64,000 bases of DNA, from NCBI GenBank assembly GCA_043805415.1, contig JAZDHZ010000034.1, positions 101,478 to 165,477 of the forward strand, read 5' to 3'. This stretch comes from Candidatus Omnitrophota bacterium (lineage in GTDB: Bacteria; Omnitrophota; Gorgyraeia; B26-G9). Positions 9,201 to 55,489 of this stretch are shown piece after piece. The translations under genes were made by a program, and so were the position numbers. How positions within the stretch are numbered: position 1 is the stretch's first letter; each line of letters opens with the position of its first letter. The notes under the pieces are model-generated. The model was not told where the DNA came from. It searched no databases and was given only the letters and a program-made list of their open reading frames with translations.

Positions 9201-11184
9201 GAATCCTGATTTGGCGCAGGCCCTGCGGCAGGCATTAAAAAATTATCAGGTAGAATATGCCGGTAATGATGAGGAAAAAATCATTAATCCCAGCGGACTG
9301 GATAAAGATTTATTATATGCGAATGTGAATTTAATCCGCGAAAAATTACTTAACCTTGATTACCAACAGTTAATCAAGGAAAATTATCCTGCTTTGAATA
9401 ATAAACTTATTGCTGAGTATATGAACAGGTCGGGATGGTATTCCGCGGCAGTGCCAAATAAAATAGCGCAGACTTTGCTTAATATCGCGGTTTTACCTGG
9501 AAATCCAGAGTCTGTTATGGAAAGTCTTACCACTATTCTTGGCCACGACAACACTATTAGCGGGGAAAAGCGGGTATTATTAGATCAGGCGTTTGCCAAT
9601 GCCGCCGCGATTGCTCATGACTCGGTATTTAGAAAAGGAGATTTGTTTGTCTTAAACAAGTTTAATGATCCTGAAGCTAATCAGAAGGTGCTGTCTTTTG
9701 CCCGGTATATGGGAAATGGCAGAAAGGCGATGGTAATCAGTAATTTCAATGACTCGCGCATTAACGGAACCCTTTTGCTCAATCAGCATAATTTTGACAA
9801 AATATTTAATATCTCCAGCACTCCAGGCAGTTATTATGCTTTGATTGACAGGGTAAGCGGAGAAATATACCTGCGTGAAGGAAAAGATTTGATCGCGCAT
9901 GGTTTGTATTTTGATCTTCCGGCTCAGTCCACGCATGTTTTTATGGTTCAGAGTTTACAGGATAATACAGCCAATGTTTTGCGGTCTAAATGTAATTATT
10001 ATAATGGCAAATCTCTGCCGCTGGAAGAAATTCTTTCGCTATTAAATAATTTTGGGCTGACTTTGGATTTTCCCTGTGTGGGAAAAACAGCGCGGGCTTT
10101 TGTTCTCCAGGGTCTTTTAAACAATGTTCCGGCAAATCAATTGATCCAGGCTTTTAAAAACAATCCGGAAATCAAGATAATCGAATTTGGGTTAAACCCG
10201 GCGGAAATCGCCGCTGAGATTAGCAAATTAGCGCAAGAGTATCAAGCTGATAAGCAAGTTCAGGCTTTATGCCAGGGCCTGCGGTTTTTAAATCAAAGAG
10301 GAGCATTAAATGAAATAAATCTTGTCCTGGTTTTAAATCAGGACAAAACATCAGTTGAGGCTGTTCAGTATTTTGATCATGGTTCAAAAAGCAGGAAAAG
10401 TTATTTGTATGTTAATTTGTCGCGGCTGAATCTGGATTCAAATAATAATTCTGAAACTAAACTTTCCGCCGCGTTAATAATCGGCGCGCGGATATCACGC
10501 CAAGGGTCGATCGCGGATTATGAATTAAGCCGAACCCTTAAAGCATTTTTAGCGCTTTGGGCGCGAGACGACGCGACTTTGCCAGGGTTAATCGACAGTG
10601 AACACAAAAGGATAAAAGGCATGTTGGAATATCTTGAAACAAATCTTAATTCAGTAATAGATGAATGGAAGCTGCCGTTTCATTATAACCTGGGACATGA
10701 TACGCTGTTAAGCCACTCTTTAAGGCGCGTAGTCATGGATTTGTTTTTAAAACAAAATACTGATAATCAAGTCAGTTTAGCCACTGTGCATAATTTTGCT
10801 TATTTCTTGGCGTATTATTTGGCTGATTCCGGACAGGCAGATAAGCTTCGCGATATTTTGCTTCAAGGATTTTCTGGAAAAAAAGCATCTTTTTATGAAC
10901 AATATTTTCTTACCAGCTTTATCTCCGGAGCACTGGTTTTAAGGGACAGCAGCATAGACGCGATTTTTATTGATTTACTGGAAAATCCTTTGCCGCAAAC
11001 GGATCTTGCCTTGCGGGAAAAAATTATAAAAACAATGTGCGGTCTAAACCGTTTTGATTTAAAATTAAACAAAATCTCAGTCAAAGAGTTGGGGGCGGTT
11101 CTCCAATCCGGCAAAGCTATTGAATCACTTCCTGAGGCAACAGTCGCGATCAGGCAGTATCAGGCGATTGGACAGGCGATTTAA
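6256..11184 (+). CDS. giant secreted protein (1642 aa): an N-terminal GH77 4-alpha-glucanotransferase (amylomaltase-type) catalytic domain fused to a C-terminal region of about 900 aa with unknown function
   Basis: Signal peptide. GH77 signatures: GDIPFYV, GAPPDQYDREYGQNWGGTPY, GIRIDHFRAL, AEDLGS and GTHDTQT. The C-terminal two-thirds has no recognisable motif. The C-terminus ends in the conserved IGQAI. Confidence 0.8.
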   Translation: MFFRKRNSYRVKITTFIILQCFIIINSQSIFAQEQRIVLSRQQTSTLSPHLSIGMNLIQAIFSEKSQQPIAASNLPGTLISLRDTGSIKELLSGKDVFLNDLWARKTLGVPTAISSLRSEDNNFDLWDWGKGDMGESSRQHILWLAKNGFSRWMRLPNRKTRALFGDPSPYASRSAFAGEDSDIAVPEVEEFINSKQAQAWYEQNKNRIKDLHNANRVNGMEVARLKNEALWLAMEYFKENHLNKNTSRGKAFDSFLNDKDNDWVSEYAEYMAISEYYWDTKKAVFFEINEDIWSNIDQKLKGLVHDLNVAISTDKIKDVGRLYEMIDDFFAQYYQNSIVANETDIFRLNIYQSLLDKIKQGILKDLVRGNIKSLVEADEPECAKILLDGYERSKQAFRYDIKDAIGQECMADWRNWDNAGLVERDPIVLAQFREKLEDKILFHKYAQFIFNEQEKNMKEFANSNGIAIEGDIPFYVSTISCETWVYKDKIFRLDPKNRYQQMADSGAPPDQYDREYGQNWGGTPYYINAAFKQFFYKRTKHELKNADGIRIDHFRALNDFWVIPHGKLGRDGKFEDGPKDELLQPLLNLALGQFKRFFAEDLGSYLEGVWDLMRDNEVKGFRVAIFGHGDDDDIVHRQYSGQIAFSGTHDTQTWFGAWNQWDSVKRRIFLDRFTHDDIPEIWQRLTSEQRKGFLKYLNYLVKQLKADTANINKHSEFQSESKDFFTENNFKTQLKKVRVITRSLVDLEELPFGVQTAVFGILAFSEADTVFLPMQDIFRQGEEFRINVPGRPGDWGYRHPYTGQELNKAINEEIKKADELMRLLAQTSGRDVSVPLYKKGQGVHILGVSPGVNAKKMCKPGEEFIIWAAVQGDKPAKVNLLTNMPEHNGAYPKEQAVAMELVKELKSGTYLYGVRIRATQPGKWGVAVEADNVRAGEVKENTSLVVSALDKIAPLAKEQEAVLRIAAGISKEKLQRILNELNPDLAQALRQALKNYQVEYAGNDEEKIINPSGLDKDLLYANVNLIREKLLNLDYQQLIKENYPALNNKLIAEYMNRSGWYSAAVPNKIAQTLLNIAVLPGNPESVMESLTTILGHDNTISGEKRVLLDQAFANAAAIAHDSVFRKGDLFVLNKFNDPEANQKVLSFARYMGNGRKAMVISNFNDSRINGTLLLNQHNFDKIFNISSTPGSYYALIDRVSGEIYLREGKDLIAHGLYFDLPAQSTHVFMVQSLQDNTANVLRSKCNYYNGKSLPLEEILSLLNNFGLTLDFPCVGKTARAFVLQGLLNNVPANQLIQAFKNNPEIKIIEFGLNPAEIAAEISKLAQEYQADKQVQALCQGLRFLNQRGALNEINLVLVLNQDKTSVEAVQYFDHGSKSRKSYLYVNLSRLNLDSNNNSETKLSAALIIGARISRQGSIADYELSRTLKAFLALWARDDATLPGLIDSEHKRIKGMLEYLETNLNSVIDEWKLPFHYNLGHDTLLSHSLRRVVMDLFLKQNTDNQVSLATVHNFAYFLAYYLADSGQADKLRDILLQGFSGKKASFYEQYFLTSFISGALVLRDSSIDAIFIDLLENPLPQTDLALREKIIKTMCGLNRFDLKLNKISVKELGAVLQSGKAIESLPEATVAIRQYQAIGQAI

Positions 11185-11185
11185 T

Positions 11186-14100
11186 ATGTCAGGAATTTTT
11201 AAAACTAAAATTTTAAATAGATTTCTCTGTCTGGTTATTTTGCAGATATTTCTTGTTTCCAATTTTTCCTGGGCCGCGGATGATTTGCGCGCGAATGATT
11301 TAGTTTATTCCAGCGCAACGCTTTCTCCTTCGCTTCAAATCAGCGCTGATGCGCTAAAACAATATTTTGCCCAATCCTTTGATTTAAAAACCGCGGCAAA
11401 TATAGATCCGGTTATAAAAGATATTTGCTTAGAGCTGTATAAGGCCAAGGATAAAACCACAAAAATAGAAGTTCTGGCCCTTGAGCAAGGCTATAGAGTA
11501 AAGATCAGGACTCAGAGCAATACGCCGCTTGTTTTACATTGGGGGTTTAATAATTGGCAAAAGCCTTTTAAGGAAATCTGGCCCCAGGCAGAGAATATCC
11601 GCACTTATTTTGATGAGCAGACCAAAGCAATGCGGACCATAGTCGAGGCTTCAGCTGAGGGAGATTATGTTTTTAATATTGATATCCCCTGGGAATTAGT
11701 TTCAGGAATAAACAATATTGATTTCACCTTCTTTTGCCCAGAAACCAAAGAATATAAGAAAGCAATTGAAAATAAGGATTATGTTGTGCCGGTTTCTAAT
11801 GTCTTGAACCTGGCCTTGGCGCGCTTGGCTGAAAATGCCGGGGCAGATGATCCTGAAAAAAAGCACGATCTGCTTAATTTGATAAACAAAAGGCTGGCTG
11901 CGGCCAAAGATTCAGCGGAAATAGATGAAAACAATATTCCTTTGTTTTATGACGCGCATGAAAATATTATTACCCAGATTGTGAAAAACAAAGCAGGAAT
12001 CAGAATTGATTTCTGGGTTGTAAGTAATGAGCCGCTGGTTTTACATTGGGGAATAAATGATTGGCAGTTGCCGCCAAAAAGCATTTGGCCGGACCGGACA
12101 TTATATAAAACCCGGGCTTATGAAAAAAAAGCAGTGCAAACTCAGATGCATTTGGCTTCTAAAGACGGTTTGTACCAGACCTCGATTTACATCCCTAACC
12201 AGAATTTAAAAGAAGTTAAAAACATCAAGTACAATGTACATTATCCAAATAATGGGTATTGGGATAATAATAATGAAGAGGATTATAGTTTATCGCTGCA
12301 AGCCCAGGATCTTATAGCCGCTTTGCTGCCTTACGCGACAGGCAGATTCGCTGCCCACATAAACGCCAAACAAGCTCGCGGCTTGTTAAAGAACATGGCG
12401 TTTTTCTACGCTGAGAATATGAATTACACTGATTTGTTAAAGCTTTTTCAGGGGATGGAAGGCATTGCCCCTGGGGATGATCTTGAAAAAAAAGATGTTT
12501 TGGGATTAATCCTTATTGCCAAATTAATGAACGAAGGCGCGGTTTGGGATAGTGACAAAGCTAAGATTATTATCAGTAAACAAAAGATCAGCGCCGCGAT
12601 AGCGGAGTTGATTGATAAACTTGACCCCTTAAGTGTGCAGTGGGCATTATATATATTCGGACTGCTTGACCCTTCCTGGGTCTCAATCCTTACGCATCAG
12701 CTTGATTATAAGCAGATATACCAGGATGTGCAAAACAGCAAGATCAAAGACCTGCCGAAATTTATCCAAGGGATAATCAACAGTTATGATGATTTGGAAG
12801 GAGCGCCGCAGGTTCTTTCCGCTGAGAGTATTGATGAAACCTGCCTGATCATAAAATTGAAATTCAATGATCAGATCATCAGTACAAAATGGGGCTATCC
12901 GACAAAACAGCAAAAGTATTATTATCAAAATGGGATTTTTGAACTAAGAGATTTCGGGGGAAATGAATTTTCGCCGGTAGGCCGTAAGCTTTCGCGTTAT
13001 GTGGATAAAGAAGTGATAAAAACCCAGATCTCCAGGCTGCGTGGCAAAGGCAAAAAGGCGATTGTTGACGGAATTTCCTGGCAGTCTCCGGAAGCGCTTA
13101 ATTCGGATAATTATATGTATTATCATCATAGTCTGCTGGAAAAAGACGCGGATGTCAGGAATTTATTGCTTTCCCGTGGTTCTTCCACGATCTTAGAACT
13201 TCCGGACGGGAAAAAAGCCTGGGTATTTCATCGGCCTGATTCATCAGATCAGCTTTCGCCTAATCTTAAATTCGGAACAAAGGCAGCGGAATACTGGAGA
13301 AATTATTGGCTGGAGTATTATAAATATTTTATCAATGAATTTGACGTGGATGGATTCAGGGTGGATTTACCCGGAGAGTTGAATCATCATGGAGATTATT
13401 CGGTATTTAAGAGTGTTTGTTTTGATATAGTGCGGTACGCGGCGGCAAAAGGCAAAAAAATATATTTTATTTTAGAAACATATCATGGGTACGCGAATAT
13501 CTGGGGCTGGGATGAGTTTTCCGCGTTAAATCATGATCCGCAGATAGCGCAATACGGCTATAAACCTTTCCGCTGTTATTATAAGCCGGTAATGACCAGT
13601 ATTTACCGCGGCAGCGCGTTTGATCTAAGAGCTGCTTTTGAACGCATAGCCGGCAGTGTTCAGGAATTGGTTATTTCAATTACTAATTTTGACGAGAAAA
13701 AAGCCGAGGATATTATTCCTGAAAAACAAAGGCTTAAGCGTTATATGGAGCTTTTGTATAATTTTGCCCGCGCGGGATTTGATGTAATGATTTATTTACG
13801 GGATTTAGGTCTGGGCGATATTTTGCCGATGTGCGGCGGAGATCGGGTTCTCTGGGGCGGAAAGCTGAGGGTTGTGGCGCATAAGCCGGCTACTCCGCGT
13901 CAGTTTCGGCAGAGATTGGAGCAAAGCACAGGCGATTTGCTTGAACAATCTCCTTTATATCAGGCGTTTAAAAAATCGCCGCAAAGCCCCTTATCGCGGC
14001 TGTTCTTCCGCGGCAATAAGTTAGTTTTTTATCAGCCGGGAAAAACTCCGGAAGTGTTTGATCTGGATAAGATGGCTAAGCCTGCTCCACCGGTAAAAGT

Positions 14101-15142
14101 TATGGACAGTGAGGAGGATATAAATATTTGGCTGCAGCAGCAGGTTTATTCATTAACAAATAATGAGCCGCAAACCCAAGCCTTAAGAGAAATTGAAAAT
14201 ACTTTAAAACGATTTAAGCATAGTGCAAGTGCAATGGCGGGAAAAGCTGTTTTGGCTCTGGTCTGTTCTGAGACTAAGAATTTCGCGGTTTGGGATCAGG
14301 CAAAAGGCCAAACTCAATGCCTGCGCATGCCGGTAAATAAAGTATTGGCCATAAAAAATGACCATGCTTTTGTTGTGGATATTAAACAAGCTGGCAAAAG
14401 CGAATCCCGCAGAATCCCGGCGCTGCAAATCAAGCAAAGCGGCAAATATTTGGCAATGGTTTTTGGCTTGGCTCCGGGTAAATACAGGTTTAATTTTTTG
14501 TGGCAGGAAAAACATGAAAACCAGGGCTGGGAAGAAGGCAATGGCTATGAGCTTGAAGTCAGTTCTCCGAAGACCGGGCAACCAGAGCTGGCGGTCTATA
14601 TCCCGCGTTTATCCGCTGAATATTTAAGGGATTGGGATGAAATGTTTTATCAGGCAAAAGATGCTGGCCGCAATCTGCTGACCGGAGATATGCTTACAAA
14701 GGGAATGCTTGAAAATATAGAATCCTCGATTGATTTTACCCTGCGTTATGAGTATGGCCGGGAGATTTTAGAACAAATTAAAGACAAAAAGAAAAAGCAG
14801 GTTTTCAATATTTTATATAATCAAATTTCGCAAAACCCGCGAGGCCGATACAGTTTACTGCATCATCACCATGAAAAAGATTTTTTTAAATTAGCGGAAA
14901 CTGTGCTTGAGAGTATCCCGGGTTTAGCAAGACCAGAGGCAGCCCCAATATGGCAATATTTGGACGCGCTCAAACAAGCGGATAATCCTGACCAAGGAGA
15001 ACAAAGCCAAATAGCCGTAAATATAAAACTGCTTGGTTTTATGTCTGGTTTGTTCGCGCAGATCGAAGCCCTGTCCGCGGCTAAACCCCTTGAGCTTTGG
15101 CTTAATATTGAAGCGGAGTTTTTGATTGGACAGGCAATATAG
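11186..15142 (+). CDS. giant secreted protein (about 1318 aa) with two tandem starch-binding-like repeats (LHWG(F/I)N(N/D)WQ motif, CBM45/CBM25-like) and a GH13-like region (DVDGFRVDLPGE, ILETYHGY); putative alpha-glucan-active enzyme
   Basis: The start is the ATG at 11186, 2 nt after the stop of the previous gene. The listed ORF start at 11120 overlaps that gene and has no RBS. Motifs were recognised by eye. The C-terminus ends in LIGQAI. Confidence 0.5.
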   Translation: MSGIFKTKILNRFLCLVILQIFLVSNFSWAADDLRANDLVYSSATLSPSLQISADALKQYFAQSFDLKTAANIDPVIKDICLELYKAKDKTTKIEVLALEQGYRVKIRTQSNTPLVLHWGFNNWQKPFKEIWPQAENIRTYFDEQTKAMRTIVEASAEGDYVFNIDIPWELVSGINNIDFTFFCPETKEYKKAIENKDYVVPVSNVLNLALARLAENAGADDPEKKHDLLNLINKRLAAAKDSAEIDENNIPLFYDAHENIITQIVKNKAGIRIDFWVVSNEPLVLHWGINDWQLPPKSIWPDRTLYKTRAYEKKAVQTQMHLASKDGLYQTSIYIPNQNLKEVKNIKYNVHYPNNGYWDNNNEEDYSLSLQAQDLIAALLPYATGRFAAHINAKQARGLLKNMAFFYAENMNYTDLLKLFQGMEGIAPGDDLEKKDVLGLILIAKLMNEGAVWDSDKAKIIISKQKISAAIAELIDKLDPLSVQWALYIFGLLDPSWVSILTHQLDYKQIYQDVQNSKIKDLPKFIQGIINSYDDLEGAPQVLSAESIDETCLIIKLKFNDQIISTKWGYPTKQQKYYYQNGIFELRDFGGNEFSPVGRKLSRYVDKEVIKTQISRLRGKGKKAIVDGISWQSPEALNSDNYMYYHHSLLEKDADVRNLLLSRGSSTILELPDGKKAWVFHRPDSSDQLSPNLKFGTKAAEYWRNYWLEYYKYFINEFDVDGFRVDLPGELNHHGDYSVFKSVCFDIVRYAAAKGKKIYFILETYHGYANIWGWDEFSALNHDPQIAQYGYKPFRCYYKPVMTSIYRGSAFDLRAAFERIAGSVQELVISITNFDEKKAEDIIPEKQRLKRYMELLYNFARAGFDVMIYLRDLGLGDILPMCGGDRVLWGGKLRVVAHKPATPRQFRQRLEQSTGDLLEQSPLYQAFKKSPQSPLSRLFFRGNKLVFYQPGKTPEVFDLDKMAKPAPPVKVMDSEEDINIWLQQQVYSLTNNEPQTQALREIENTLKRFKHSASAMAGKAVLALVCSETKNFAVWDQAKGQTQCLRMPVNKVLAIKNDHAFVVDIKQAGKSESRRIPALQIKQSGKYLAMVFGLAPGKYRFNFLWQEKHENQGWEEGNGYELEVSSPKTGQPELAVYIPRLSAEYLRDWDEMFYQAKDAGRNLLTGDMLTKGMLENIESSIDFTLRYEYGREILEQIKDKKKKQVFNILYNQISQNPRGRYSLLHHHHEKDFFKLAETVLESIPGLARPEAAPIWQYLDALKQADNPDQGEQSQIAVNIKLLGFMSGLFAQIEALSAAKPLELWLNIEAEFLIGQAI

Positions 15143-15160
15143 ACTTAGGTTTGTTTTTGT

Positions 15161-21657: not shown

Positions 21658-22851
21658 TCAGATAAATTCTGTGCTGAACATGCACACCCGATTTCTTCCG
21701 GTTTCTTTAGCTACATACAGAGCCTTATCAGCAAAAGCAATTAAATCATCTTTGTTCGAGGCATCCTGGGGAAAACTGGCGACTCCGATACTGATCGTGA
21801 TTCTTTTGGAAGGTTGTCCCTCTTTATAATGGCAAGGGTGAGCGGCAGTTAATTTTCTTATTCGCTCAGCAGAGGAATAAGCTTTTTCTTTAAATGTTTC
21901 CGGCAGAATAATCGCGAATTCCTCTCCGCCATAGCGGGCGACCAGATCAACTTCCCGGCAGGTGGACTGGAGAATTTCCGAGATTTCCTGCAATAATTTA
22001 TCTCCGGCCAAATGCCCCAGGCTATCATTAAATTTCTTAAAATGATCGATATCGATCATTAATAAGCTGACATGGCGGTTAAACCGGTTTGCTCTTTTAA
22101 CTTCTTCCGCTAATTGGTGCTGAAAATATCCATAGTTCCAAAGACTTGTCAGGCGGTCGGTGTTGGATAAGATAAGGGTTTTTTCAAATTCCTGAGAGTT
22201 GCCGATTGCCAGTCCGGCATTATTGGCAAACATAGTCAGTTTCCAGATATCATCTTTGGTAAGATCTCTTTTGGAATAGAAATTATCAACCAGCATTACT
22301 CCGAGAACCCGGTTTTTTGCCATTAAAGGAATCGTCAGACCGTATTCCATATTAAATAAGGAGATGATCGGGTCGTTTTTTTAAATTTGTTTTTTATACG
22401 TAGGGGTTATTATCTCAAACTGTTTTTTCTGAAGCACTGTTTGGGCTAAAATTCCCGAACTTGGATTAATCGGCAGCTTGATATTTTTAACATTATTATT
22501 AAAATGCGAATCCTGTTTGCGGCCGAATTCTTTATAATCTTTTAACAGCTCCTCAAGAGTTTTATGCGTGTTTTCAATAAACTCCCAAATATTTTTCGCG
22601 TCAGCTTCTGAATCAGGGCCAATACCCATCCGGCCTTCCAGGATATTTTCTTTCTCATTAACCAGAAAAACCATAGCCCGGTTAAACCCCAGGCCTTCGC
22701 CGGAAGTAACACTGGTAAGAATAATGTATAAAATTTCATCCAGCCTGAGAGTCGAGCTCATGGCCATGCTGATTTCATAAAGCATCAGCAGTTCGGCGTG
22801 ATATTTATCTTGTAGGTTTTTCGGTGTTTCTTCGATTGACATAGCCTTCAT
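21658..22851 (-). pseudogene. GAF-GGDEF diguanylate cyclase gene interrupted by a single in-frame TAA (complement of 22381-22383). GAF is split across the stop; the GGDEF domain has an intact GGEEF motif.
   Basis: The two minus-strand ORFs (22851->22381 and 22350->21658) are in the same frame and separated only by one TAA. The GAF domain continues across it (..KKQI*KNDPIISLFNMEYGLTIPLMAKNRVLGVMLVDN). GGDEF motifs: RYGGEEFAIIL and DHFKKFNDSLGHLAGD. Confidence 0.6.
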
Positions 22852-23060: not shown

Positions 23061-24440
23061 GTGGTTAAGAAAAAAATAAATTCAGCAGGCATAATATGCG
23101 TGGTTTTTGTATTTCTCGCTTTACTTTTTGCTGCTTCTGGTTTTTGTGAGACTGAAGCGGAGTTTAAAGCTTTGATAAAAGAGTATGAGCAGAAATACGC
23201 TTATGATCCTTATGATGAAAATATTAAAAAACAATTAAGCGTTTTATATCATAATTACGCGATGGAGCTGGCTAATGAGGGTTTATGGGATGAAGCGATA
23301 GAACATGAAAAAAGAGCATTGGATATTGAGCCGGAGATCGCGAGCATAAAGAATGCTCTGGCGTATATGTACAATTGCCGGGGTTTGGAGCGGAAAGACG
23401 AAGGCTTGTATGATAAAGCGATTAGCGATTTAAAATCAGCGATAGAGTATAGCCCAGAAGAGCTGGTGCTTAAAAAAAATATCGCGGCAATTTATTTGGG
23501 CTGGGCTTATCAGTTTTTTGAAAACAATGAATATTCCAATGCTGAACGGATGCTGCTTCAGGTGCAGCATTATGATGATCAGAATCCATATCTCTATGTT
23601 GTCAGGGGAGACATTGCTTATACCCGGGATAGCTATTTTGCTACGCGTGATAATTGGCAGAAAGCTTTAAAGTTAAATCCCAGCCTTTATCAGGTTAGGA
23701 TGAAGCTGGAAAAACTGGAAAAGGAACAGGATGTGGAGAGAAATTTTAGTGTTCGGGAATTTGAGAACTTTAAATTAAAATTTGAAGGCATTGCCAGTGA
23801 GGGCTTAGCGGATAAAGCGGCGGAAATATTAAGAAATGCTTATAAGCAAGTGGGTAAAGACTTTGATCTTTATCCTCGGGCAACTGTTCCGGTTATTATT
23901 TATCCTTTTGTTAAGCTGAAAAAACTCGATTATTTTCCAGATTGGGCAGCTGGTACCTATGACGGGAAAATCAGGTTTGGCGAAGATTTAGGCAAAGACC
24001 CATTGCTGATGCAGGGAGTTTTATATCATGAATATACGCATGTTATTGTCAGGATGCTGGGCGGGGATAATGTTCCGCTCTGGTTAAATGAAGGCTTAGC
24101 GGAATATGAGGCAAAACAATTTAAAACCGCGCTTGTCAATAAATCAAGAAAAGAATTAATATCCAAGGCCATTGAAAAAGGAACAATCTTCCCTTTAGAT
24201 AAATTAGGAACAATGGATTTAAGTAAATTATCCTATCTTGCTCCGCACAGGATCGAGCTGGTTTATGCCCAGTCCGAGGCTTTTGTCCAGTATATTATTA
24301 ATCGCTCATCGCTTTATGACATAAAAAAGCTTTTGCAGGAGCTGGGCAAAGGCACGAATATTTATAAAGCGGTTAAAGATGTGCTGTATGTTGAAGTAGA
24401 GGTTTTGGAAAGAGACTGGAAAAATGAATATCAAAAATAA
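23061..24440 (+). CDS. TPR-repeat protein with a C-terminal Peptidase_MA-like (gluzincin HExxH...E) domain; N-terminal signal/TM. GTG start.
   Basis: TPR-like repeats in the N-terminal half. HEYTHVIV...LWLNEGLAEYEA matches the Peptidase_MA_2 pattern (HExxH ... NEGxAxY). Confidence 0.5.
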   Translation: MVKKKINSAGIICVVFVFLALLFAASGFCETEAEFKALIKEYEQKYAYDPYDENIKKQLSVLYHNYAMELANEGLWDEAIEHEKRALDIEPEIASIKNALAYMYNCRGLERKDEGLYDKAISDLKSAIEYSPEELVLKKNIAAIYLGWAYQFFENNEYSNAERMLLQVQHYDDQNPYLYVVRGDIAYTRDSYFATRDNWQKALKLNPSLYQVRMKLEKLEKEQDVERNFSVREFENFKLKFEGIASEGLADKAAEILRNAYKQVGKDFDLYPRATVPVIIYPFVKLKKLDYFPDWAAGTYDGKIRFGEDLGKDPLLMQGVLYHEYTHVIVRMLGGDNVPLWLNEGLAEYEAKQFKTALVNKSRKELISKAIEKGTIFPLDKLGTMDLSKLSYLAPHRIELVYAQSEAFVQYIINRSSLYDIKKLLQELGKGTNIYKAVKDVLYVEVEVLERDWKNEYQK

Positions 24441-26244: not shown

Positions 26245-27012
26245 ATGAAAAATCCGCTGCATAACAAAATAATCTGTATGGTTTGCTTATTTATTGCAAT
26301 CAGCAATACTGCTTTACCGGTTTTTGCTTTGAATAATCCGGAATCAAGCCGAAAATATTGCCTTTCCCCGTTTTTACGTATAATCAATTCTGATTTTCAA
26401 TCCAGATTTGAGAGTCTAAACTCTGACTTATTAGACAATAATTTAAACATGCCAGGGGATCTGAAAAGCCGCGCGCTGGTAGTTGGCAGGACAAGCATAA
26501 TTTTTAATAACAAAGAAATGAGCTTTTTTGAATTAACAAAAAGCCTAAACCTTTTACTTGCCAATGATCGATTTACTTACTTTGCCAGAATTGAAAAAGA
26601 TATGGTTAAATATGCGGCATTAAGCACTGTAGAGCAGCTTTTACTTGCTTTAAAGCAGTCAGAATTATCAGAATATGCTGAGCAAATTGATATTATTCTG
26701 GCAATTTTGCATCTTTCCGCTGAAGACGCGGCAATTATCCTTAGCGGCATTGAACCTTTGCAGCAAAAATCAATTACTAATCTTACTGATAAGGCCTGGA
26801 CGAATAAATTCAGAATGAAACGATTCAGCTTAACCATGGGCTATGAGCTTGATATTGCTAAAGCTTGGTATGTTAAAACATTGGAAACAGAGGCTGAGGA
26901 AAGACAGTGGTGGCATGCTATGTGCCGCAATTCAATGCCTATGAATATGTTTAAGGGTTTGAATGCTGATTTGCAGAAAAAAAATCATGGCTTAATTGAT
27001 GCTTCAATTTAA
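26245..27012 (+). CDS. hypothetical secreted protein (C-terminus ...DASI)
   Basis: Signal peptide; no recognisable domain. Confidence 0.45.
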   Translation: MKNPLHNKIICMVCLFIAISNTALPVFALNNPESSRKYCLSPFLRIINSDFQSRFESLNSDLLDNNLNMPGDLKSRALVVGRTSIIFNNKEMSFFELTKSLNLLLANDRFTYFARIEKDMVKYAALSTVEQLLLALKQSELSEYAEQIDIILAILHLSAEDAAIILSGIEPLQQKSITNLTDKAWTNKFRMKRFSLTMGYELDIAKAWYVKTLETEAEERQWWHAMCRNSMPMNMFKGLNADLQKKNHGLIDASI

Positions 27013-41722: not shown

Positions 41723-43429
41723 TTGATTTTGAACTTAAAATTTCTTAAATGCGCAATGATTTTATTTATGGTTTTTCTCCTGAATACAAAAAATTGCTTT
41801 GCTGATTTGCTTTCTGAATCTTTTCTTAGCCCGGTATCAAATATTGATCTGGGATCATTGCAAAAAACATTTACCTATTTAGTAAATGAGCAAACTTATT
41901 CAGAATATAAAGCAATCTTTGAAATCAATGATCAGGATAAACCGCGGCGCGATCTTAAAGCGCGGGATTTAGAAGATTTTTTACAAGTCATAACCGATAT
42001 TCGCTTGATCCTGGAAATGTTTTCCCAGGGAAATGCGTTTAAAGGAATTATGAACCAGGCAGATAAAGAAACAATAGATGATTTCCTGAGCAATCATCCG
42101 GATGAGATTGAGCTGCTGAAAGATTCAGGAATTAAACCTGTTCTTAGCGCTATCCTTGAGCGCGCTTTGGCGCAGCTGGCTGCAAGGCAAAGAGCGGTCC
42201 CGTCTTTGGCTGAAACCATGTATAAGGAATTAATTTTTAGATTAAAAACAAAGCTGGAAACAGCCGCGGGAATGCTTAAGACAGGCATGCCGATTAAATC
42301 AATCAATTTTAATCAGGAAATACTTTCCTATCTAAAACCAGAAACCCTTAACCGGATAATCGAAAACATTAACTGGCAAAATCAAGACCCTGATGATTAT
42401 AGCGGGCAAAGAAAGATTATTTTAAACCTGGATAAACCAATTGTTTTGGAAAACGGTAAAATAATCAACTCAATTGAAATCAAAGGAGTTGTTTACCGAA
42501 AAGATGAGGTTGCGGTTACTCCTTTACAGGAGAGGTTTAACACAATAAAAGTTCCAAGATTAGACAAAAACAATCTAACTGCTTTGAAAAAAAGAGTACA
42601 TTTAAAAGGCGGAATGCCTTTTGCCGCGGCTAAAAGAGAATATATGATTTTAGAAAAACTTTACGCGCAAGGTAATTACCAGTATGATTATCCCATCGGA
42701 TACGGCAGGTATAAGAATTATACGTTCCAGGGCAAACAATTTGGATTTATCATCACAGGTGTGGAAAATTCAAGGCGAACAAGAATGGGCGACTGGTTTT
42801 TTGATAACTATCAGGAGATTTTTGATTTACTCACGATTGATAAAGTCAGATTCGCTAATTTAGCAGTAGAACTCTTTGAGGTTCATGAAACTTTTCTCAG
42901 GCATTATGGCCGGGAGTTGCGGAGGTTTCATGACAGCGGATTTTATCATGGTTATCCGCATACTTTAAATGTAAGCTGGGATAAAGAATTTAAAAATATC
43001 GTGCTTAATGATTTTGAAGCCAGCAAGCTGATTTCCCATTTGCCTGTTGAAAAAAGAGTTGGCTACCGATTGATAGATCTAAGCTCGGCTTATGCCCATT
43101 TTATTTACTTTCTTACCAATGATCGGGATTTAATGGAACTAGCGGCGTTTTCCGAAGGCATGAATCATCTGAATAATCCTTTTCGCTATTTTCTTCAGGG
43201 GTATTTTGGCAATGATTTGCCAAATTTTAATTTTGATGGTTTTATGAGTGAAGCTATTTATCCGGCGGTTGTGTCCGGGGTAGATGTGATTAATGACCTG
43301 GATCAGGATATTGTGAGTAAACTTTTGAATATTGAAGGCGCGGATTATAAGCGAGTTAAGTATATTGATCAAATTGTTTTTGATGCGCAGGGCTTTGTAA
43401 ATGAACTTGCCTGTCAAGAAGCGATCTAG
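41723..43429 (+). CDS. hypothetical secreted protein, 568 aa (TTG start; the alternative TTG at 41729 is better spaced from the GAGGAG RBS). A faint kinase-like pattern (HGYPHTLNV...LNDFEAS) is not convincing.
   Basis: Signal peptide; the C-terminus ends in CQEAI. Confidence 0.4.
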   Translation: MILNLKFLKCAMILFMVFLLNTKNCFADLLSESFLSPVSNIDLGSLQKTFTYLVNEQTYSEYKAIFEINDQDKPRRDLKARDLEDFLQVITDIRLILEMFSQGNAFKGIMNQADKETIDDFLSNHPDEIELLKDSGIKPVLSAILERALAQLAARQRAVPSLAETMYKELIFRLKTKLETAAGMLKTGMPIKSINFNQEILSYLKPETLNRIIENINWQNQDPDDYSGQRKIILNLDKPIVLENGKIINSIEIKGVVYRKDEVAVTPLQERFNTIKVPRLDKNNLTALKKRVHLKGGMPFAAAKREYMILEKLYAQGNYQYDYPIGYGRYKNYTFQGKQFGFIITGVENSRRTRMGDWFFDNYQEIFDLLTIDKVRFANLAVELFEVHETFLRHYGRELRRFHDSGFYHGYPHTLNVSWDKEFKNIVLNDFEASKLISHLPVEKRVGYRLIDLSSAYAHFIYFLTNDRDLMELAAFSEGMNHLNNPFRYFLQGYFGNDLPNFNFDGFMSEAIYPAVVSGVDVINDLDQDIVSKLLNIEGADYKRVKYIDQIVFDAQGFVNELACQEAI

Positions 43430-46813: not shown

Positions 46814-46819
46814 AGATTG

Positions 46820-47251
46820 GGGGGTGAAGGGTTTCGACTTATGTGGATGTTATAAGGGCAGCATGTCGAGGTGGTCGGGAGGCCTCGTTAAACACCTGGC
46901 AAAATAATAAATGCTGAAACTAAAGTTCCAGTAAGTGTAGATGCACTTCTTGAGAGAATTGGATCGGGCATTGCTCATCCGACTTTCACAGGATTTGTAC
47001 CTGCAGCAGTGTTACTTTAATAAAATAAAGTAACCCGTTTTTTGGCCTTTTGTCTGGGGGGTCAGAGAACGTCATTTACAGGCTCGCTTTACCTGGTTGG
47101 TTTTTGACAGGTAAGGTTAAACACTCAAAAGCTGCCTGTTTAAGTACCTCGCCTATTGGGGATTTAAACAGAAAGATAAACAATAGGCTAAACATGTAGA
47201 TACTCTTATTTGTCGCTTAAGGACGCGAGTTCGATTCTCGCCACCTCCACC
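46820..47251 (+). ncRNA. ssrA: tmRNA (SsrA)
   Basis: 5' GGGGGTGAAGGGTTTCGAC pairs with the 3' end GGACGCGAGTTCGATTCTCGCCACCTCCACCA (tRNA-Ala-like acceptor/T-arm). GCAUGUCGAGG..GGCCUCGUUAAA resembles the E. coli pseudoknot-1 region. The internal tag reading frame ends in tandem TAA TAA (47018-47023) and is located immediately after smpB. Confidence 0.85.
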
Positions 47252-47261
47252 AAATAAACAA

Positions 47262-48990: not shown

Positions 48991-51357
48991 ATGAGAAAGT
49001 TTAAAAATATTTTCATAAAGGTACTTATAGCAGCGTTTCTGTTGCAGACGCCATCTGCTTTTGCGTTGAAAAGTGCCCAAGACAGTGTATGTGCCAACGC
49101 GGGTACAGTTTTTCTGGCGCCTTATCTGACCATTGATGCCACATCAATTCAAACGAGTGCCTCCAAACTATATGATTTTTCCCAACAGGCTGCTTTACAA
49201 CCTGTTCTCGAAACTCTTACAGATAATTTCGGATGGCCGGAAGAGATTGCTGTTTCTGTTAGCCAGCGAGTGGCGTTTACACTCAGTCAAACAGAGACAT
49301 CAGTAGATTATCGGCCGGATATTGCCATTATTGCTACCGCGACTACGTCAGATCAACAGTATATCCGTTATGTTTTTCCGTTAAACCAGGAAAATTCTAT
49401 TAGCGTGGTTGATCAAGACATGAGGATAATCCGTTTTGTCTGGAATGGAAACGAGTTATCAATCGCGGAAATTGGAACAGGGGATCGAGGAACTGTGCGC
49501 TATGCGGATCAACAGATGCTTTTATCGCTTAAGGATCACATTAAAGATAGAATGGAAGAACTGCTTAAAAGAGATTCTGTAACATTAGAAGACTTGCAAG
49601 AATTATTGTGGATGGACCCCCTAACTTTTTTAAAAGACCAAGACTATGAGCCGCGACCCTTAGAAAACGACGAAATATTTTTTCTCATGAAGCGTTTAAA
49701 CGATTTATTCTTTGAATTGAAGGTTGATGATCCATGGGTTCTTCCCAAGATTAACGATCCTAATGCTTTGGCGGCAGATGATCCGTATCACCTGTTAACC
49801 TCCAGACGACGTGTCCAGATTGATGAGCGTGTTGTTGATCATGGAATTTTGTTTGAAGCAATGAAGTTAGAAGCTGATGAGTTTGCTCTGTTTCTCGCTC
49901 GGGATGCGATGAGCGCGCATGAATTTATCACCCATCTGCAAACCTTACAAGGCAACTCACAAGCCCTGTCAGGATTAGTTTATCAGCCAGGGCTTCGCAG
50001 CGCGTTTCAAACTGATTTTGACAAGAAACATAAGCGGACAGCATATGTGGATGAGGAAAGTTTAGAACATACCATGAGAAGAATAACCCAGGCTTTTCAG
50101 GGCACTTTGCAAAAATTGGGAAAGCCTGTTCAGAGAATAACCCGAGGCGAGGCTGATAATAAAGAATTTAACGCTGATGAATACAATGAGTTTTATTCGC
50201 TTTTTAAGCAGAAAATAATCGAGCTGATTAATTCCGAAGAGCATGTTCGCAAAGAATCGGAACTTATATTGAACCAGATAAAAAGAGCGATTCATGGAGA
50301 TTTTAAGAAGATCCGGGTTATTGATTTGGATGCGACAGGGAAAACAGCGCTTTATGTAAGAGCGGTTATTGAGTATTATGCTGAGAAGGGAGAGCTTGAT
50401 GTGGAGAGCGCTGAAGTATTTATCGGCAACGGACGTGGAAGCTCGGTAAATGTTCCCAAGGTGCGTCAAGGCGCGACAGACCCTCAGGTGAGTTTTGTTG
50501 ATTTGAACTGGCCATTTATTGCTGAGCAAAGAGATGCTGCTACGGGAATGGTTAACTTTAGAGTTACTAAGTCTCGCTATCGCTTCCTTGAGCTTACGTA
50601 TCAGAGTTTGCGTTTGTACAATGAAGCAATCAGTTTTTTTGAAAACGGGCAGAAAGGCTCAGTGTCCAGGCTTTCAAAGAAAGAGAATGCGAAGGCGTCC
50701 AAAGCTAAACCAAATAATATACTGGATATGACAAAGTATGAATTTTTAAACCAGTATCAGAGAAACGGGTTTTTCCGTCCAGGGTTTTATGGAAGCAAAC
50801 GATTGGCAATTGAAGCGCGGCTCAATGAGTGGTTTGGAAAAGGTAATTGGCAGGAGCGTTATGCGATCAATGGGAATCTTAGTACTAAGGATGAGATGCT
50901 TGTGTTTTATGAAGATGCCTATGTCGCGTATTTACGGGATAATAGTCCTCTAGCCACTTGGTTGGAAGAAACAGCAATCGACGTATTTGATAATAGTACA
51001 TCTAATCTGGATAGCAGGATGGATTATTCCATTCAGGAAACGACAAGCAACCATTACCAGGATATTGCTATACGCAGAGCATTTGATCGTTTAGGCAAAA
51101 GTTTTGGAGGTTCTGAACTGATTCAAGTTCGCGGAAAGGATTCGAAAGGGGCTAAATTAAGTCCAGGGGTGGTACCTTTTAATAAGCCGTATCTGCTTTT
51201 CAATCCTCCGCTCAAAGGTTGGTGGAACAAAGGTTCTATCGAAGAATTTTTGCAAAGCTCAAAAGTTATTGTTATCCTGCCGGCTACCTTTAATATTGAA
51301 ATAAAAAGTGCTGTTCAATACAGCAGAGAGCAGTTTGTTATCGAGCATTCGATATAA
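48991..51357 (+). CDS. hypothetical secreted protein, 788 aa (C-terminus ...IEHSI)
   Basis: Signal peptide MRKFKNIFIKVLIAAFLLQTPSAFA; no recognisable domain. Confidence 0.45.
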   Translation: MRKFKNIFIKVLIAAFLLQTPSAFALKSAQDSVCANAGTVFLAPYLTIDATSIQTSASKLYDFSQQAALQPVLETLTDNFGWPEEIAVSVSQRVAFTLSQTETSVDYRPDIAIIATATTSDQQYIRYVFPLNQENSISVVDQDMRIIRFVWNGNELSIAEIGTGDRGTVRYADQQMLLSLKDHIKDRMEELLKRDSVTLEDLQELLWMDPLTFLKDQDYEPRPLENDEIFFLMKRLNDLFFELKVDDPWVLPKINDPNALAADDPYHLLTSRRRVQIDERVVDHGILFEAMKLEADEFALFLARDAMSAHEFITHLQTLQGNSQALSGLVYQPGLRSAFQTDFDKKHKRTAYVDEESLEHTMRRITQAFQGTLQKLGKPVQRITRGEADNKEFNADEYNEFYSLFKQKIIELINSEEHVRKESELILNQIKRAIHGDFKKIRVIDLDATGKTALYVRAVIEYYAEKGELDVESAEVFIGNGRGSSVNVPKVRQGATDPQVSFVDLNWPFIAEQRDAATGMVNFRVTKSRYRFLELTYQSLRLYNEAISFFENGQKGSVSRLSKKENAKASKAKPNNILDMTKYEFLNQYQRNGFFRPGFYGSKRLAIEARLNEWFGKGNWQERYAINGNLSTKDEMLVFYEDAYVAYLRDNSPLATWLEETAIDVFDNSTSNLDSRMDYSIQETTSNHYQDIAIRRAFDRLGKSFGGSELIQVRGKDSKGAKLSPGVVPFNKPYLLFNPPLKGWWNKGSIEEFLQSSKVIVILPATFNIEIKSAVQYSREQFVIEHSI

Positions 51358-52914: not shown

Positions 52915-52951
52915 AACCTCTGTTCTGAGAATTTATCAGGGCAGGGGTTTT
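52915..52951 (+). terminator. conserved intrinsic terminator copy 3 (AACCTCTG ... CTGAGAA-ttt-atCAG ... CAGGGGTT + interrupted U-tract)
   Basis: Same element as at 47262 and 48527; follows the GH5-like gene. Confidence 0.6.
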
Positions 52952-53146
52952 CTGGTTTTAGGCTTCAGAAAGTTAATTAGCCGGATTATTTGCTTTTTTA
53001 GCTGAATTCAGGTATATTTTTGGTAGTTTTTGTTAGGCTGATTTTGCTGTTTATCGTTAATTTTCAAATGGTTGCGTTCCTGGCAGCTGTTTATACGCTA
53101 ATTTTCAGACATATCCGCCTTATTCATAATTAAGAAAGCAAAAAAA

Positions 53147-55489
53147 ATGATTTATCAAATAAGAAAATTTATTTTATTGCTCCGATTTATATGCCTAATC
53201 CTGGGACAGTTATTGCTGATTAATGGCTTTGCCTGGGCAGGGCAGATGAATACTTTGTCTCCGGTAGCAGTTGTAAGCAATGCTAATTTTAAAAAAGCTT
53301 TTGATGATAATTTAGACGAGATATACGCGCTTAATAATAAAATTAAAAGCATCAAACAGGTTTATAGCATGATCACGGAATTAGATGCTTATCCGGGTTT
53401 TACCCGAATGCTTGATTCAGATGATGGATACAGAGATATCGGCATTTTTCTGGTTTCTGATCTTGATGAGGTAAATAAAATTATAAACATATTGCCAGTA
53501 GATAAACATTCTGAGGTTTGTGAGCTGGGCAGCGGCATTGGTAATGTCAGTGCTTTATTTGCCGCCAGAGGGGCAAATGTAATTGGTTATGAAATTGACC
53601 AAAAGCTGGTATGGTTAAGTAATAATATAGCGCAAATTGATTTAAAAGATATTCTTGCTCCGGAAAGAATAAAGTTTGAGCGCGCGAATTTTTTAAGCAA
53701 GGATCTTTCTAAATTTGACATTATATTCTATTACTGGAACAGCATGGTTTCTGAATATAAAGATGAGCTGCAGAATAAAATTTTAAAAGAACTTAAGCCC
53801 GGTGCTTTATTGGTATTGTTCGGGGTGAGCAAGGATAAAGCATATTTCTCGGGATTAAAAGAGATGACTGGCTTACCGGGCTATGAATCAATAAGCGCGT
53901 ATGCCAAGGTATATGCGCAGCCGGATAAACCTATTGCCCAAACCAATGAACAATCAAAGCTGCAATCATTTCGCGATGATTTAGATTCGCCGGATACAGA
54001 GGCGCGTTTGCAGGCAGCGCTTGCTTTAGCGCAAAGCAAGCATGCTGATGATAAAGCATACGCGATTATTAAGGAATCAGCAATTAATAAAAACTTAACG
54101 CTGAATGAAAGAATAAGAGCGGCGAGATTCTTAAGCGATTCAGACCGGATGGAATATGCCGGGCAGCTTATAAGCGATGAACAACAGTTTGCCAGAATAG
54201 AACGCGACGATAAAAAAGACTTTGACAGTTTGGAGCTATCAGCGGCAAGTCTAGAGCAAGTTCAAGGGCAAATAAAAATGATATCAGGCATAGATAAGCA
54301 AGTTGCTGATGAACTTATGCTCAAGGCGGGTAAACTTGCTTTTTTAAGTGAGGAGCTTTCCCGGCTTAGTAACGCGATAAGATATTTTGAGGGAAATTGG
54401 CATGCGCTTTTAGAGGAAAAACTGGATAGCGAATATGGCTATGCCAAAGAAGTAAATGAGGCAATGATCGCGGACGATATGCTAGGGGTTGAGCTTTTTA
54501 ATGCCGTAGATTATGTAAAAGCTTATTTGGTTTGCCAAAAGTTAATATCCCGGCTTAGAGATAAAGGGATAATAGTTATGGGCGGAGATAGAGAATGGTT
54601 TTTGCTTGAGGCTTTTCAGTATATTTTTAAGAGAAATTATACAATGGAACAAGCAGAAAAGATGCTGGAAAATAAATGGGAAGTATCAACAGCGGCAATA
54701 AGAGCAAAAGAAATATTTAAAGATTTAATAACAATTGGCCTTAGCCCGAGTGGGTTTATGTCAGAAGTGAAAATAGGATTTTTCGCTAATACGGCGCAGC
54801 AGTTCATCTATCGGGGTTATGACGACGCGAATCATCTTGAATACGCGCCCGGCCCGAATTATGATGCCAGAAATATTTCCATTGGAGTGGAGAACAATAT
54901 TGGTTCAGTAAATGCCATGCACATTAATCTTGGGGTGCCCTGGGCCTCAAAATATATCTGGGCATCATATTTGGCATTGCATAATTTTATTGATTCAAAT
55001 ACTATGGCCAAAGGTTATTATGATTATTTTTATGATCAGCAAATCAAAGACAGCAGTCAATTATTCCCCGGCCAGCGCAGGGTTTCTTATATCGGGGTTT
55101 GGACCGAAGACCTTGATGATCTGGATTCAATAATCGAGACTTTTGTGCCCTTGAGCATTGGTTTAAATAATTATATGTCAAAAGAAAATCCGGAAATAGC
55201 GGAAATCTGGAAAACTTTTAGAATCGAATTTGAAGAGATTATAAATTCGCAAAATGATCAACAGTTAAAAACGGAATTTTTTGAACAAGCCAGGATGGTA
55301 AGATTCGTGGAATTGATATCGGAAAAAAATCGCGGCAATATTTTTTACCAGCAAGTTGAAAATCTTATTCAAAAAACAATCAAACAAATTAATCATAATC
55401 TCGCGAATCAAAACAAGAATCAGGCTTTAATCAAACATTCCCCGGAATTTCTTCAATTTCCAGAAACCGCGGTACTTAATTCAATTTAG
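53147..55489 (+). CDS. secreted protein (780 aa) with class I SAM-methyltransferase domain and HEAT/PBS-lyase-like repeat. The leader is paralogous to the giant proteins.
   Basis: Leader MIYQIRKFILLLRFICLILGQLLLINGFAWA. MTase motif I VCELGSGIGNVSALFAARGANVIGYE. The C-terminus ends in VLNSI. Confidence 0.5.
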   Translation: MIYQIRKFILLLRFICLILGQLLLINGFAWAGQMNTLSPVAVVSNANFKKAFDDNLDEIYALNNKIKSIKQVYSMITELDAYPGFTRMLDSDDGYRDIGIFLVSDLDEVNKIINILPVDKHSEVCELGSGIGNVSALFAARGANVIGYEIDQKLVWLSNNIAQIDLKDILAPERIKFERANFLSKDLSKFDIIFYYWNSMVSEYKDELQNKILKELKPGALLVLFGVSKDKAYFSGLKEMTGLPGYESISAYAKVYAQPDKPIAQTNEQSKLQSFRDDLDSPDTEARLQAALALAQSKHADDKAYAIIKESAINKNLTLNERIRAARFLSDSDRMEYAGQLISDEQQFARIERDDKKDFDSLELSAASLEQVQGQIKMISGIDKQVADELMLKAGKLAFLSEELSRLSNAIRYFEGNWHALLEEKLDSEYGYAKEVNEAMIADDMLGVELFNAVDYVKAYLVCQKLISRLRDKGIIVMGGDREWFLLEAFQYIFKRNYTMEQAEKMLENKWEVSTAAIRAKEIFKDLITIGLSPSGFMSEVKIGFFANTAQQFIYRGYDDANHLEYAPGPNYDARNISIGVENNIGSVNAMHINLGVPWASKYIWASYLALHNFIDSNTMAKGYYDYFYDQQIKDSSQLFPGQRRVSYIGVWTEDLDDLDSIIETFVPLSIGLNNYMSKENPEIAEIWKTFRIEFEEIINSQNDQQLKTEFFEQARMVRFVELISEKNRGNIFYQQVENLIQKTIKQINHNLANQNKNQALIKHSPEFLQFPETAVLNSI

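Follow-up and report, generated by a model that had tools for sequence, protein, structure and literature searches.

A C-terminal hexapeptide coupled to an N-terminal leader on otherwise unrelated proteins of one Omnitrophota clade

The C-terminal sorting signals known from bacteria are long, consisting either of a domain or of a motif combined with a transmembrane helix. Among them are those of the type IX C-terminal domain (CTD), LPXTG, PEP-CTERM/exosortase and GlyGly-CTERM/rhombosortase systems, where a Sec leader is paired with a C-terminal element found family-wide on unrelated proteins. Very short motifs at the extreme C-terminus are used by eukaryotes, in which KDEL or HDEL in the endoplasmic reticulum (ER) and PTS1 (SKL) in the peroxisome mark many unrelated enzymes. 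Here we analyse 64,000 nucleotides of DNA from a Candidatus Omnitrophota bacterium (contig JAZDHZ010000034.1, positions 101,478 to 165,477; this whole stretch is referred to as the window), in which nine genes encode proteins that combine a hydrophobic N-terminal leader and a short box downstream of it with a hexapeptide tag at the extreme C-terminus, Φ-[IV]-[EG]-Q-[AS]-I-COOH (common form L-I/V-E/G-Q-A/S-I). This two-ended signature is real, statistically overwhelming and apparently undescribed.

The first-pass annotation of the window had listed eight proteins with a shared ending, and translation of the open reading frames (ORFs) found all eight endings at the named genes, each of them [AS]-I. 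A ninth gene, overlooked by that annotation (3057-3809, + strand), carries the leader, the box as ALSPRLSL, a GNAT-type body (FR47/GNAT, 22.8 bits) and the ending VLDGSV, an Ile-to-Val variant with its tag codons at 3789-3806; its product, P0200, was also returned by the N-terminal profile search described below. Counting ORFs of at least 150 residues, the window holds 35, made up of the nine family members and 26 others, and the [AS][IV] ending is absent from all 26. The 26 include seven ordinary signal-peptide proteins (starts 1926, 16039, 23061, 27275, 47937, 51738 and 55738), so the claim that the window's other secreted and housekeeping proteins end differently stands. Across 70 unrelated loci the background frequency of the ending was 1.5% (10 of 673 ORFs), against which 9 in 35 has a binomial p of 2e-9; chance, the explanation the annotation had set against its own proposal, is thereby excluded. 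Together, the nine genes account for 29.2 kb (46%) of a window whose G+C content is ~0.40, whose GC skew is positive throughout and whose + strand carries all but two of the ORFs counted here.

We then asked how the two ends are related beyond the window, using a profile (A5) of N-terminal stretches of 45-71 residues from the nine window proteins and two homologues, which spans 64 positions and holds no C-terminal information. Searched exhaustively against 1.84 billion (1.84e9) representative proteins, it gave 151 matches at E<=1e-3, of which 150 were listed, and removal of three internal-repeat matches left 147 that were genuine. Ninety-eight of the 147 end in [AS][IV], compared with the 1.5% background (p ~1e-140). 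The proposed coupling of the ending to the shared leader is thus seen database-wide with the N-terminus alone as query, and we conclude that it is near-obligate. The tagged share rises with length, from 1 of 18 matches shorter than 150 residues to 28 of 32 between 600 and 1000, 39 of 42 between 1000 and 2000 and 8 of 9 above 2000 (75 of the 83 of at least 600 residues), as would be expected were the short matches fragments. The two long untagged matches that were checkable, P0109 and P0131, both run off contig ends. All profile matches with a source name come from Candidatus Omnitrophota or Omnitrophica, and the signature is restricted to one Omnitrophota clade, where it marks more than 100 non-redundant proteins. 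It is not, as had been supposed, confined to giants: the tagged members are between 139 and 2,979 residues long, and one truncated leader-bearing fragment exceeds 3,700 residues. A few rare endings among the matches resemble variants (...ARAL, ...ARSL, ...QQGI). Separately, two leader-bearing proteins, P0120 (200 residues) and P0233 (1458 residues), share the identical untagged end ...LHYLEWDEID, which suggests a common truncation or insertion event and not a true C-terminus.

Related loci give the same result. L069, a syntenic locus from a different species whose giant orthologue is 52% identical to that of the window, encodes six proteins with leader and box that end in LVQSAI, FIQESI, SNQSI, LIIQAI, ILETAI and FIEQAI, on bodies (Trypsin_2, nucleotidyltransferase, unassigned) unlike those of the window. 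Further tagged members occur in L001 and L002, which are loci of Omnitrophota metagenome-assembled genomes with SmpB 95% and 93% identical to the window's, and in L071-L073, L075, L079 and L083, the last of which holds five consecutive tagged genes. Throughout L069, L071-L073, L075, L079 and L083, an [AS]I ending always comes with the leader and box, and it is absent from the remaining ORFs there. In L081 (11669-14176), from the complete genome CP070655.1 of a distant Omnitrophota, a gene following a homologue of the TIKI-fold protein discussed below ends in ...KIVLEAV and has neither leader nor box; this could be a remote tag variant or chance. Very large genes lie at L079 21160-21692 onward and 1-1605 and at L080 1-5738. 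One, of 10,644 residues, begins with an H-L-S-P-T-T-K-I box and has no typical leader at its called start; others, Peptidase_C39 giants of 7,815 and 7,803 residues, lie beside TIKI-fold paralogues and have the untagged ends ...FSFSN and ...IDGSL.

The conserved unit had been described as a tetrapeptide, a description that residue counts over the 98 tagged proteins replace with a hexapeptide. The terminal position is Ile in 90 and Val in 8, preceded at -1 by Ala (56) or Ser (42), at -2 mostly by Gln (61; Ser 8, Arg 8), at -3 by Glu (46), Gly (21) or Asn (9), at -4 by Ile (46) or Val (36) and at -5 by Leu (51), Phe (13) or Ile (11), whereas position -6 and those further upstream are unconserved. 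The 22 members compared, which belong to the window and to related loci, differ in their codons (GCG, GCA or GCT for Ala; TCA, TCG or AGT for Ser; ATT, ATA or ATC for Ile), end in any of the three stop codons and are followed by unrelated 3' DNA. Therefore, the constraint is on the protein and not on the DNA, for which reason a terminator, a recombination site or another DNA element is rejected as its source, and comparison of the sequences indicates purifying selection on the tag.

The hexapeptide is also strictly terminal. Only 2 internal matches occur in 128,853 family residues, where shuffling predicts 2.95, compared with 98 at the C-terminus, and copies of the tag at internal module junctions were accordingly not above chance. 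The alignment of the giant with its 52%-identical orthologue stops at about residue 2932 of 2979, beyond which the tails differ by length, sequence and indels; despite these unalignable tails both proteins end in [AS]I (...ISLLEQAI and ...LLERDIAVKSNQSI). Where modules of the giant recur in shorter proteins, the alignment ends 30-55 residues before the terminus of the latter and the tag is still present. An AlphaFold2 (AF2) model of giant residues 2385-2979, made from a six-sequence alignment, has confident domains and a predicted local distance difference test (pLDDT) score of 30-36 over the last 46 residues. Compared with the bodies, the tails show a small shift towards polar residues, a marginal effect that we do not take as proof of disorder, the fall in AF2 confidence being the better, though indirect, evidence. 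The tag thus behaves as a short linear motif, and the tail that bears it is not conserved and is probably flexible.

At the other end, the nine window proteins are alike solely over about their first 70 residues (alignments A2 and A5). Over 140 sequences, the leader has the consensus K-K-x-[IL]-F-K-I-I-[AS]-L-[IV]-L-I-Q-A-F-L-[VL]-[ML]-D-[IF]-A-W-A-G-G, in which a hydrophobic helix, with Gln at its centre, follows a basic N-terminus and precedes an A-x-A-type site. The box, 17-42 residues after the leader Gln, has the consensus [SD]-T-L-[SA]-P-x-[LIV]-x-[IL]-[ND]-x3-[FLI]-[QK]-x2-[FY], reducing to [TF]-L-[SA]-P-x-Φ-x-Φ across the window proteins. Family-wide conservation ceases 18 residues into the box, and no conserved domain lies past it. 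The giant serves as an example, with leader MNYKKSKFRLIFRIISLVLIQAFLVLDFAWAIGG, spacer and box TLAPKISLNTQEVWDAY encoded at 32603-32800 (+); the equivalent stretches of the other members, all + strand and delimited from the alignments, are 3057-3191, 6256-6450, 11186-11377, 26245-26418, 29258-29470, 41732-41881, 48991-49170 and 53147-53311. Net charge around the helix is +3.3 on the N-flank and -0.75 on the C-flank, and A-W-A occupies positions -3 to -1. By the positive-inside and -3/-1 rules, the unusually conserved leader is therefore predicted to be of Sec type, oriented N-in/C-out and followed by a signal-peptidase-type site at A-W-A.

Between these shared ends, the proteins are otherwise unrelated, as the first-pass annotation had proposed, with diverse Pfam content in the 34 members scanned. 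In the window, all on the + strand, 6256-11184 encodes P0092 (1642 residues), a protein with a GH77 4-alpha-glucanotransferase body and the tag AIGQAI (11164-11181). The next gene, 11186-15142, has its start ATG two bases past the stop codon of this one and encodes P0089 (1318 residues; alpha-glucan water dikinase Ig-like N-terminal domain; tag LIGQAI, 15122-15139), a homologue of which at 44% identity, P0204, ends in LVEQAV. Four members have bodies with no known or significant domain: 26245-27012 (255 residues; LIDASI, 26992-27009), 29258-32560 (P0090, 1100 residues; LVGQSI, 32540-32557), 41723-43429 (568 residues; ACQEAI, 43409-43426) and 48991-51357 (P0129, 788 residues; VIEHSI, 51337-51354). 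The modular giant, P0001, which is identical to an NCBI protein of an Omnitrophota metagenome-assembled genome, is encoded by 32603-41542 (2979 residues; UPF0489, cNMP-binding and GGDEF-like domains; LLEQAI, 41522-41539), and 53147-55489 encodes P0095 (780 residues), which has a class I S-adenosylmethionine (SAM)-methyltransferase domain and the tag AVLNSI (55469-55486). Added to the GNAT-type body of P0200, this is the domain content of the window family. In other genomes the signature is found on GT1/GT4/TreT, HEAT-repeat, ATP-grasp, PEP-utilising enzyme and CBM48 bodies, on NAD-epimerase joined to UDP-glucose pyrophosphorylase and HAD, on phosphoglucomutase joined to methyltransferase, and on ROK family, DUF5050, transaldolase plus PGI and AAA_5 bodies.

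From these sequence comparisons the set appears to reshuffle fast between genomes, and its enzymes to be modular. Segments ~1-930, 864-1260 and 2385-2930 of the giant recur, recombined, in shorter leader-and-tag proteins of other genomes. The giant also has six or seven internal hydrophobic segments, with three pairs at ~822-920, 1169-1260 and 1586-1645. Extra hydrophobic segments of transmembrane length occur in about half of the 98 tagged proteins, and their number shows no consistent odd/even pattern. The leader is the sole hydrophobic segment in 8 of the 9 window members, and a second transmembrane helix that returns the body to the cytoplasm, which would ease the cofactor problem taken up below, is thus not a general feature. 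GGDEF-like domains are common on tagged proteins, and small PilZ or PilZ-like genes lie between tagged genes in L073 (9629-10036) and L079 (16866-17252). Published work on Omnitrophota giant proteins describes PilZ genes beside giants, type II/Tad-like secretion loci, and sugar-metabolism, methyltransferase and GGDEF modules preceded by signal peptides or transmembrane helices; leader, box and tag go unmentioned in it.

Among the neighbouring genes, two are candidates for a component that would process or recognise the tagged family. The annotation had suggested looking for PDZ-protease, Ctp or sortase genes nearby, and neither the window nor ~200 kb of related loci encodes one. Between two tagged genes, 27275-28969 (+) encodes a protein of the TIKI/TraB/ChaN/erythromycin-esterase fold, an alpha/beta structure with the expected parallel beta-sheet core, which has a signal peptide, a degenerate box (SFLSTKIE) and the untagged end DSATP. 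This protein is 84% identical between the window and L069, compared with 52% for the adjacent giant. Its family comprises 84 homologues, whose named sources are Omnitrophota or the Planctomycetes-Verrucomicrobia-Chlamydiae (PVC) group apart from one Deltaproteobacteria and one archaeon label, and it has a large helical insertion and a D-x-H...E...GGFH pattern in which D97-x-H99, E127 and H499 are invariant (69 homologues). The RRSP 2His/2Glu set is E3900-x-H3902, E3930 and H4030 (PMC6254334). Judged by order and spacing, the two sets may be equivalent, with 28 positions from His to Glu in both and the first acid Asp in place of Glu, and because the invariant residues mirror the RRSP set in this way the product is probably a secreted hydrolase. 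That it processes or recognises the tagged family would be a guess. Up to three TIKI-fold paralogues occur in L079 (1670-5899, 6098-7687 and 10001-11692), one of them of 1409 residues. The family is also present in the Omnitrophota loci L080 and L081, where tagged proteins were not seen, so that its distribution does not strictly match that of the tag.

Another box-like N-terminus was seen on a secreted family of 600-650 residues (L073 3347-5197, L076 1034-2845, L079 7895-9844), which begins SFSPVDNMALQSFL / VDNMALQSL and ends in ...RTKA, ...LRKA or ...LIQA. From this family and that of 27275-28969, it follows that box-like N-termini also exist without the tag. Upstream of the tagged cluster, 23061-24440 (+) encodes a secreted protein with TPR repeats and a gluzincin domain (Peptidase_MA_2, HExxH), which is syntenic with a HemN-like gene in L069 and L072 and is a weak candidate for a reader of C-termini. 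Other observations in the window concern the remaining genes. An ORF of 156 residues at 5456-5926 (+) matches just the C-terminal part of a penicillin-binding-protein transpeptidase domain and is probably a gene fragment or has a mis-called start. The two minus-strand ORFs (21658-22851) are a pair of 156 and 230 residues, and the syntenic gene of L069 has GAF and GGDEF within a single 396-residue product; by this comparison the pair may be a split GAF-GGDEF gene or a frameshift. A transfer-messenger RNA (tmRNA) gene at 46820-47252 (+) adjoins smpB. Its tag, read from the Rfam-aligned resume codon, is unusually long at ~35 residues (AETKVPVSVDALLERIGSGIAHPTFTGFVPAAVLL) and ends in ...GFVPAAVLL, so that its last residues are VLL and not LAA.

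The proposal that the ending was previously undescribed is upheld, since no family model or searched paper describes the hexapeptide. No Pfam or NCBIfam model covers either end, whether members or isolated leaders and tails are scanned. With NCBIfam, neither full-length members nor isolated C-terminal tails matched any model at E up to 10, and the tails do not fall into the PEP-CTERM or GlyGly-CTERM classes. Literature searches on Omnitrophota sorting signals and on the literal peptide strings found no description of either end. A sortase substrate is rejected by the last 12 residues of the 98 members, which have neither LPXTG nor a basic tail, and by their last 40, into which none of the listed hydrophobic segments falls. 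A type IX substrate is rejected by the lack of any CTD model match in the 34 Pfam-scanned members, by a tail predicted to be unstructured and by conservation of six residues. A type I substrate does not fit with a conserved hydrophobic leader in essentially all members, and the Pfam scans found no RTX or hemolysin-type repeats. An outer-membrane beta-barrel beta-signal is rejected on the terminal residue, which is Ile or Val and never aromatic, and on bodies that are enzyme domains. An encapsulin or microcompartment cargo peptide is rejected on the Sec-type leader of all members, with no shell protein among the scanned window ORFs. Mimicry of ssrA is rejected on the organism's own tmRNA tag, which ends in VLL, unlike ...EQ[AS]I. 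Canonical PDZ ligands are of class I (x-S/T-x-Φ) or class II (x-Φ-x-Φ); Ile or Val at the terminal position of the hexapeptide would fit these, and the prevailing Gln at -2 (61 of the 98, with Ser in 8) would not.

The reading we prefer, while holding it tentatively and at slightly less than an even chance, is that the hexapeptide is the C-terminal half of a two-ended, lineage-specific signal for sorting or targeting and for completeness. The very hydrophobic leader would bring the chain to the Sec translocon, and the last six residues would be displayed on the non-conserved, apparently flexible tail. Once the full chain had emerged, a dedicated receptor would read the hexapeptide through the free carboxylate of its Ile, and only complete molecules would be accepted for the next step, be it retention, onward secretion or delivery. 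The outcome would be sorting or retention together with a completeness check for large, error-prone gene products. Export of the family we infer from the charge and hydrophobicity pattern of the leader; carboxylate recognition, the receptor and the destination are steps that this reading would presuppose.

Several observations weigh against this interpretation. The phosphoglucomutase, UDP-glucose pyrophosphorylase, NAD-epimerase, transaldolase-PGI, ROK kinase, GT4, PEP-utilising, methyltransferase, GNAT and GGDEF bodies need cytoplasmic cofactors, most bodies depending on ATP, UTP, NAD, SAM, acetyl-CoA or GTP, and because of this need a periplasmic location is hard to reconcile with them. Export would therefore be plausible only to a destination that provides such cofactors, for instance the cytoplasm of a host or prey. 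In the window and the ~200 kb of related loci, no gene for a receptor, a PDZ protease, a sortase or dedicated secretion turned up. The counts of hydrophobic segments predict no constant side of the membrane for the C-terminus. The conserved Gln and Asp of the leader could mean that it is retained as a transmembrane helix that contacts a partner, leader cleavage being only predicted, and the composition of the tail is barely more polar than that of the bodies.

Another way to view the two ends is as docking handles, with box and hexapeptide as the interaction peptides by which separately encoded enzyme modules would be linked among themselves or attached to a shared membrane hub. We regard this as unlikely, although it accounts for several observations. 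The assembly would be non-covalent or enzymatically ligated, and would be the split counterpart of the multi-enzyme giants of 10,000-150,000 residues in sister Omnitrophota. At each end a short motif adjoins sequence that is not conserved, modules of the giant turn up again in shorter proteins that have a leader and tag of their own, and tagged genes form 46% of the window and run up to five in a row. Moreover, the same module types (sugar metabolism, methyltransferase, GGDEF) are reported in the literature as fused in giant membrane-anchored Omnitrophota proteins. The conserved Gln and Asp of the leader helix would fit helix-helix association. Polar residues in transmembrane helices favour such association. 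However, no covariation between box and tag was found among 95 proteins, which argues against pairing in cis or between cognate partners; a universal hub would be compatible with this, and no hub protein was found. In its most extensive form, to which we give still less credence, box and hexapeptide would be universal joining handles that string dozens of enzyme modules into a membrane-tethered mega-assembly, or 'split giant protein', where the joining could be non-covalent or the work of a transpeptidase-like enzyme, for instance the TIKI-fold hydrolase encoded in the cluster. Such a system, if true, would be without known counterpart and equivalent to the 10,000-150,000-residue giants of the sister lineages.

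Improbable as well, in our estimate, is a C-terminal degron or a ligand for a tail-specific or AAA+ protease (Prc/Ctp, DegP-PDZ or ClpX type), recognition by which would set the level of these large enzymes or clear failures of export. ClpX recognises the ssrA ending ...LAA and the MuA ending ...KKAI, and Tsp/Prc favours small apolar C-termini. The hexapeptide is terminal-specific, ends small-then-hydrophobic and is placed on a low-confidence tail, and the genes for the secreted TPR-gluzincin and TIKI-fold proteins lie beside the cluster. On the other hand, the organism's own tmRNA tag ends in ...PAAVLL and not ...Q[AS]I, no PDZ or Clp gene was found nearby, and conservation back to -4/-5 with a preferred Gln at -2 is characteristic of a specific binding motif more than of an apolar tail. 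A degron would also be costly, since it would be present on almost all members of a family that accounts for about half of the local coding capacity. Finally, the absence of any function, with the ending either a passive leftover from the 3' end of a common ancestral gene or a side effect of a DNA element, would agree with clearly homologous leaders, whose genes could also share ancestry at their ends, and with the shuffling of modules among genes, but it is strongly disfavoured and very improbable, given that synonymous codons, stop codons and 3' flanks differ, that the 40-50 preceding residues have diverged past alignment while the last six are kept in representatives below 50% identity, and that one orthologue apparently lost its old end and gained a new ...QSI end.

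If the sorting interpretation holds, a six-residue, carboxylate-dependent signal obligatorily paired with a leader would be new for bacteria, its nearest logic being that of KDEL and PTS1. It could represent a new class of secretion signal, in which a six-residue peptide and a Sec leader export sugar-metabolism pathways into a host or prey cell. The signature also provides a simple sequence rule for proteins that otherwise resist annotation and that form a large part of the proteome in an uncultivated and probably host-dependent lineage, and this rule tells complete proteins from truncated gene calls. It makes testable a puzzle of the Omnitrophota, namely the presence of cofactor-dependent, cytoplasm-type enzymes behind export signals, of a kind that sister lineages fuse into giants.

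Among known systems, the protease ligands and degrons (ssrA, MuA, Prc/Tsp ligands and the outer-membrane-protein Y-x-F motif read by DegS) share with the hexapeptide a small-then-hydrophobic ending, and are recognised over the last two or three residues and the carboxylate, as the hexapeptide would be. They differ in having Ser, Thr or a hydrophobic residue where the hexapeptide has Gln at -2, and in their shorter reach, the motif here extending to -5; the ssrA tag of this organism ends in VLL. The type I secretion motif of the Erwinia and Serratia metalloproteases and of HasA consists of acidic and hydrophobic residues among the last four. It is similar in its hydrophobic last residues and in needing a terminal position, but type I substrates are without a Sec leader and usually have RTX repeats, whereas here a strong leader is obligatory. 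Closer in organisation are the type IX, LPXTG, PEP-CTERM and GlyGly-CTERM systems introduced above, which likewise are restricted to lineages and have many substrates per genome. Their C-terminal elements, however, are of 25-100 residues and take the form of a helix with a basic tail or of a folded beta-sandwich, while here there are six residues and neither of these forms.

The box invites a comparison with Plasmodium PEXEL and oomycete RxLR, short boxes a few to ~25 residues past the signal-peptide cleavage site that also mark a large, fast-diversifying protein repertoire, although those belong to eukaryotic pathogens, have another sequence and, in the case of PEXEL, are cut by plasmepsin V. 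With regard to the bodies, the Chlamydiae, of the same PVC superphylum, secrete the glycogen enzymes GlgA/B/P/X, MalQ and PGM into the inclusion. As in the present family, normally cytoplasmic enzymes of sugar and alpha-glucan metabolism thus bear export signals, but those of the Chlamydiae are type III N-terminal signals, with no Sec leader or C-terminal tag. KDEL/HDEL and PTS1 are eukaryotic, have other sequences and are read by known receptors (ERD2 and the TPR domain of Pex5), whereas the function of the hexapeptide is one we infer; both need the free carboxylate, which would also be read in the hexapeptide. The principle is nevertheless the closest that we find, for in each case a very short motif at the extreme C-terminus, on an exposed tail, is shared by many unrelated enzymes, and KDEL, like the hexapeptide, is combined with an N-terminal signal peptide.

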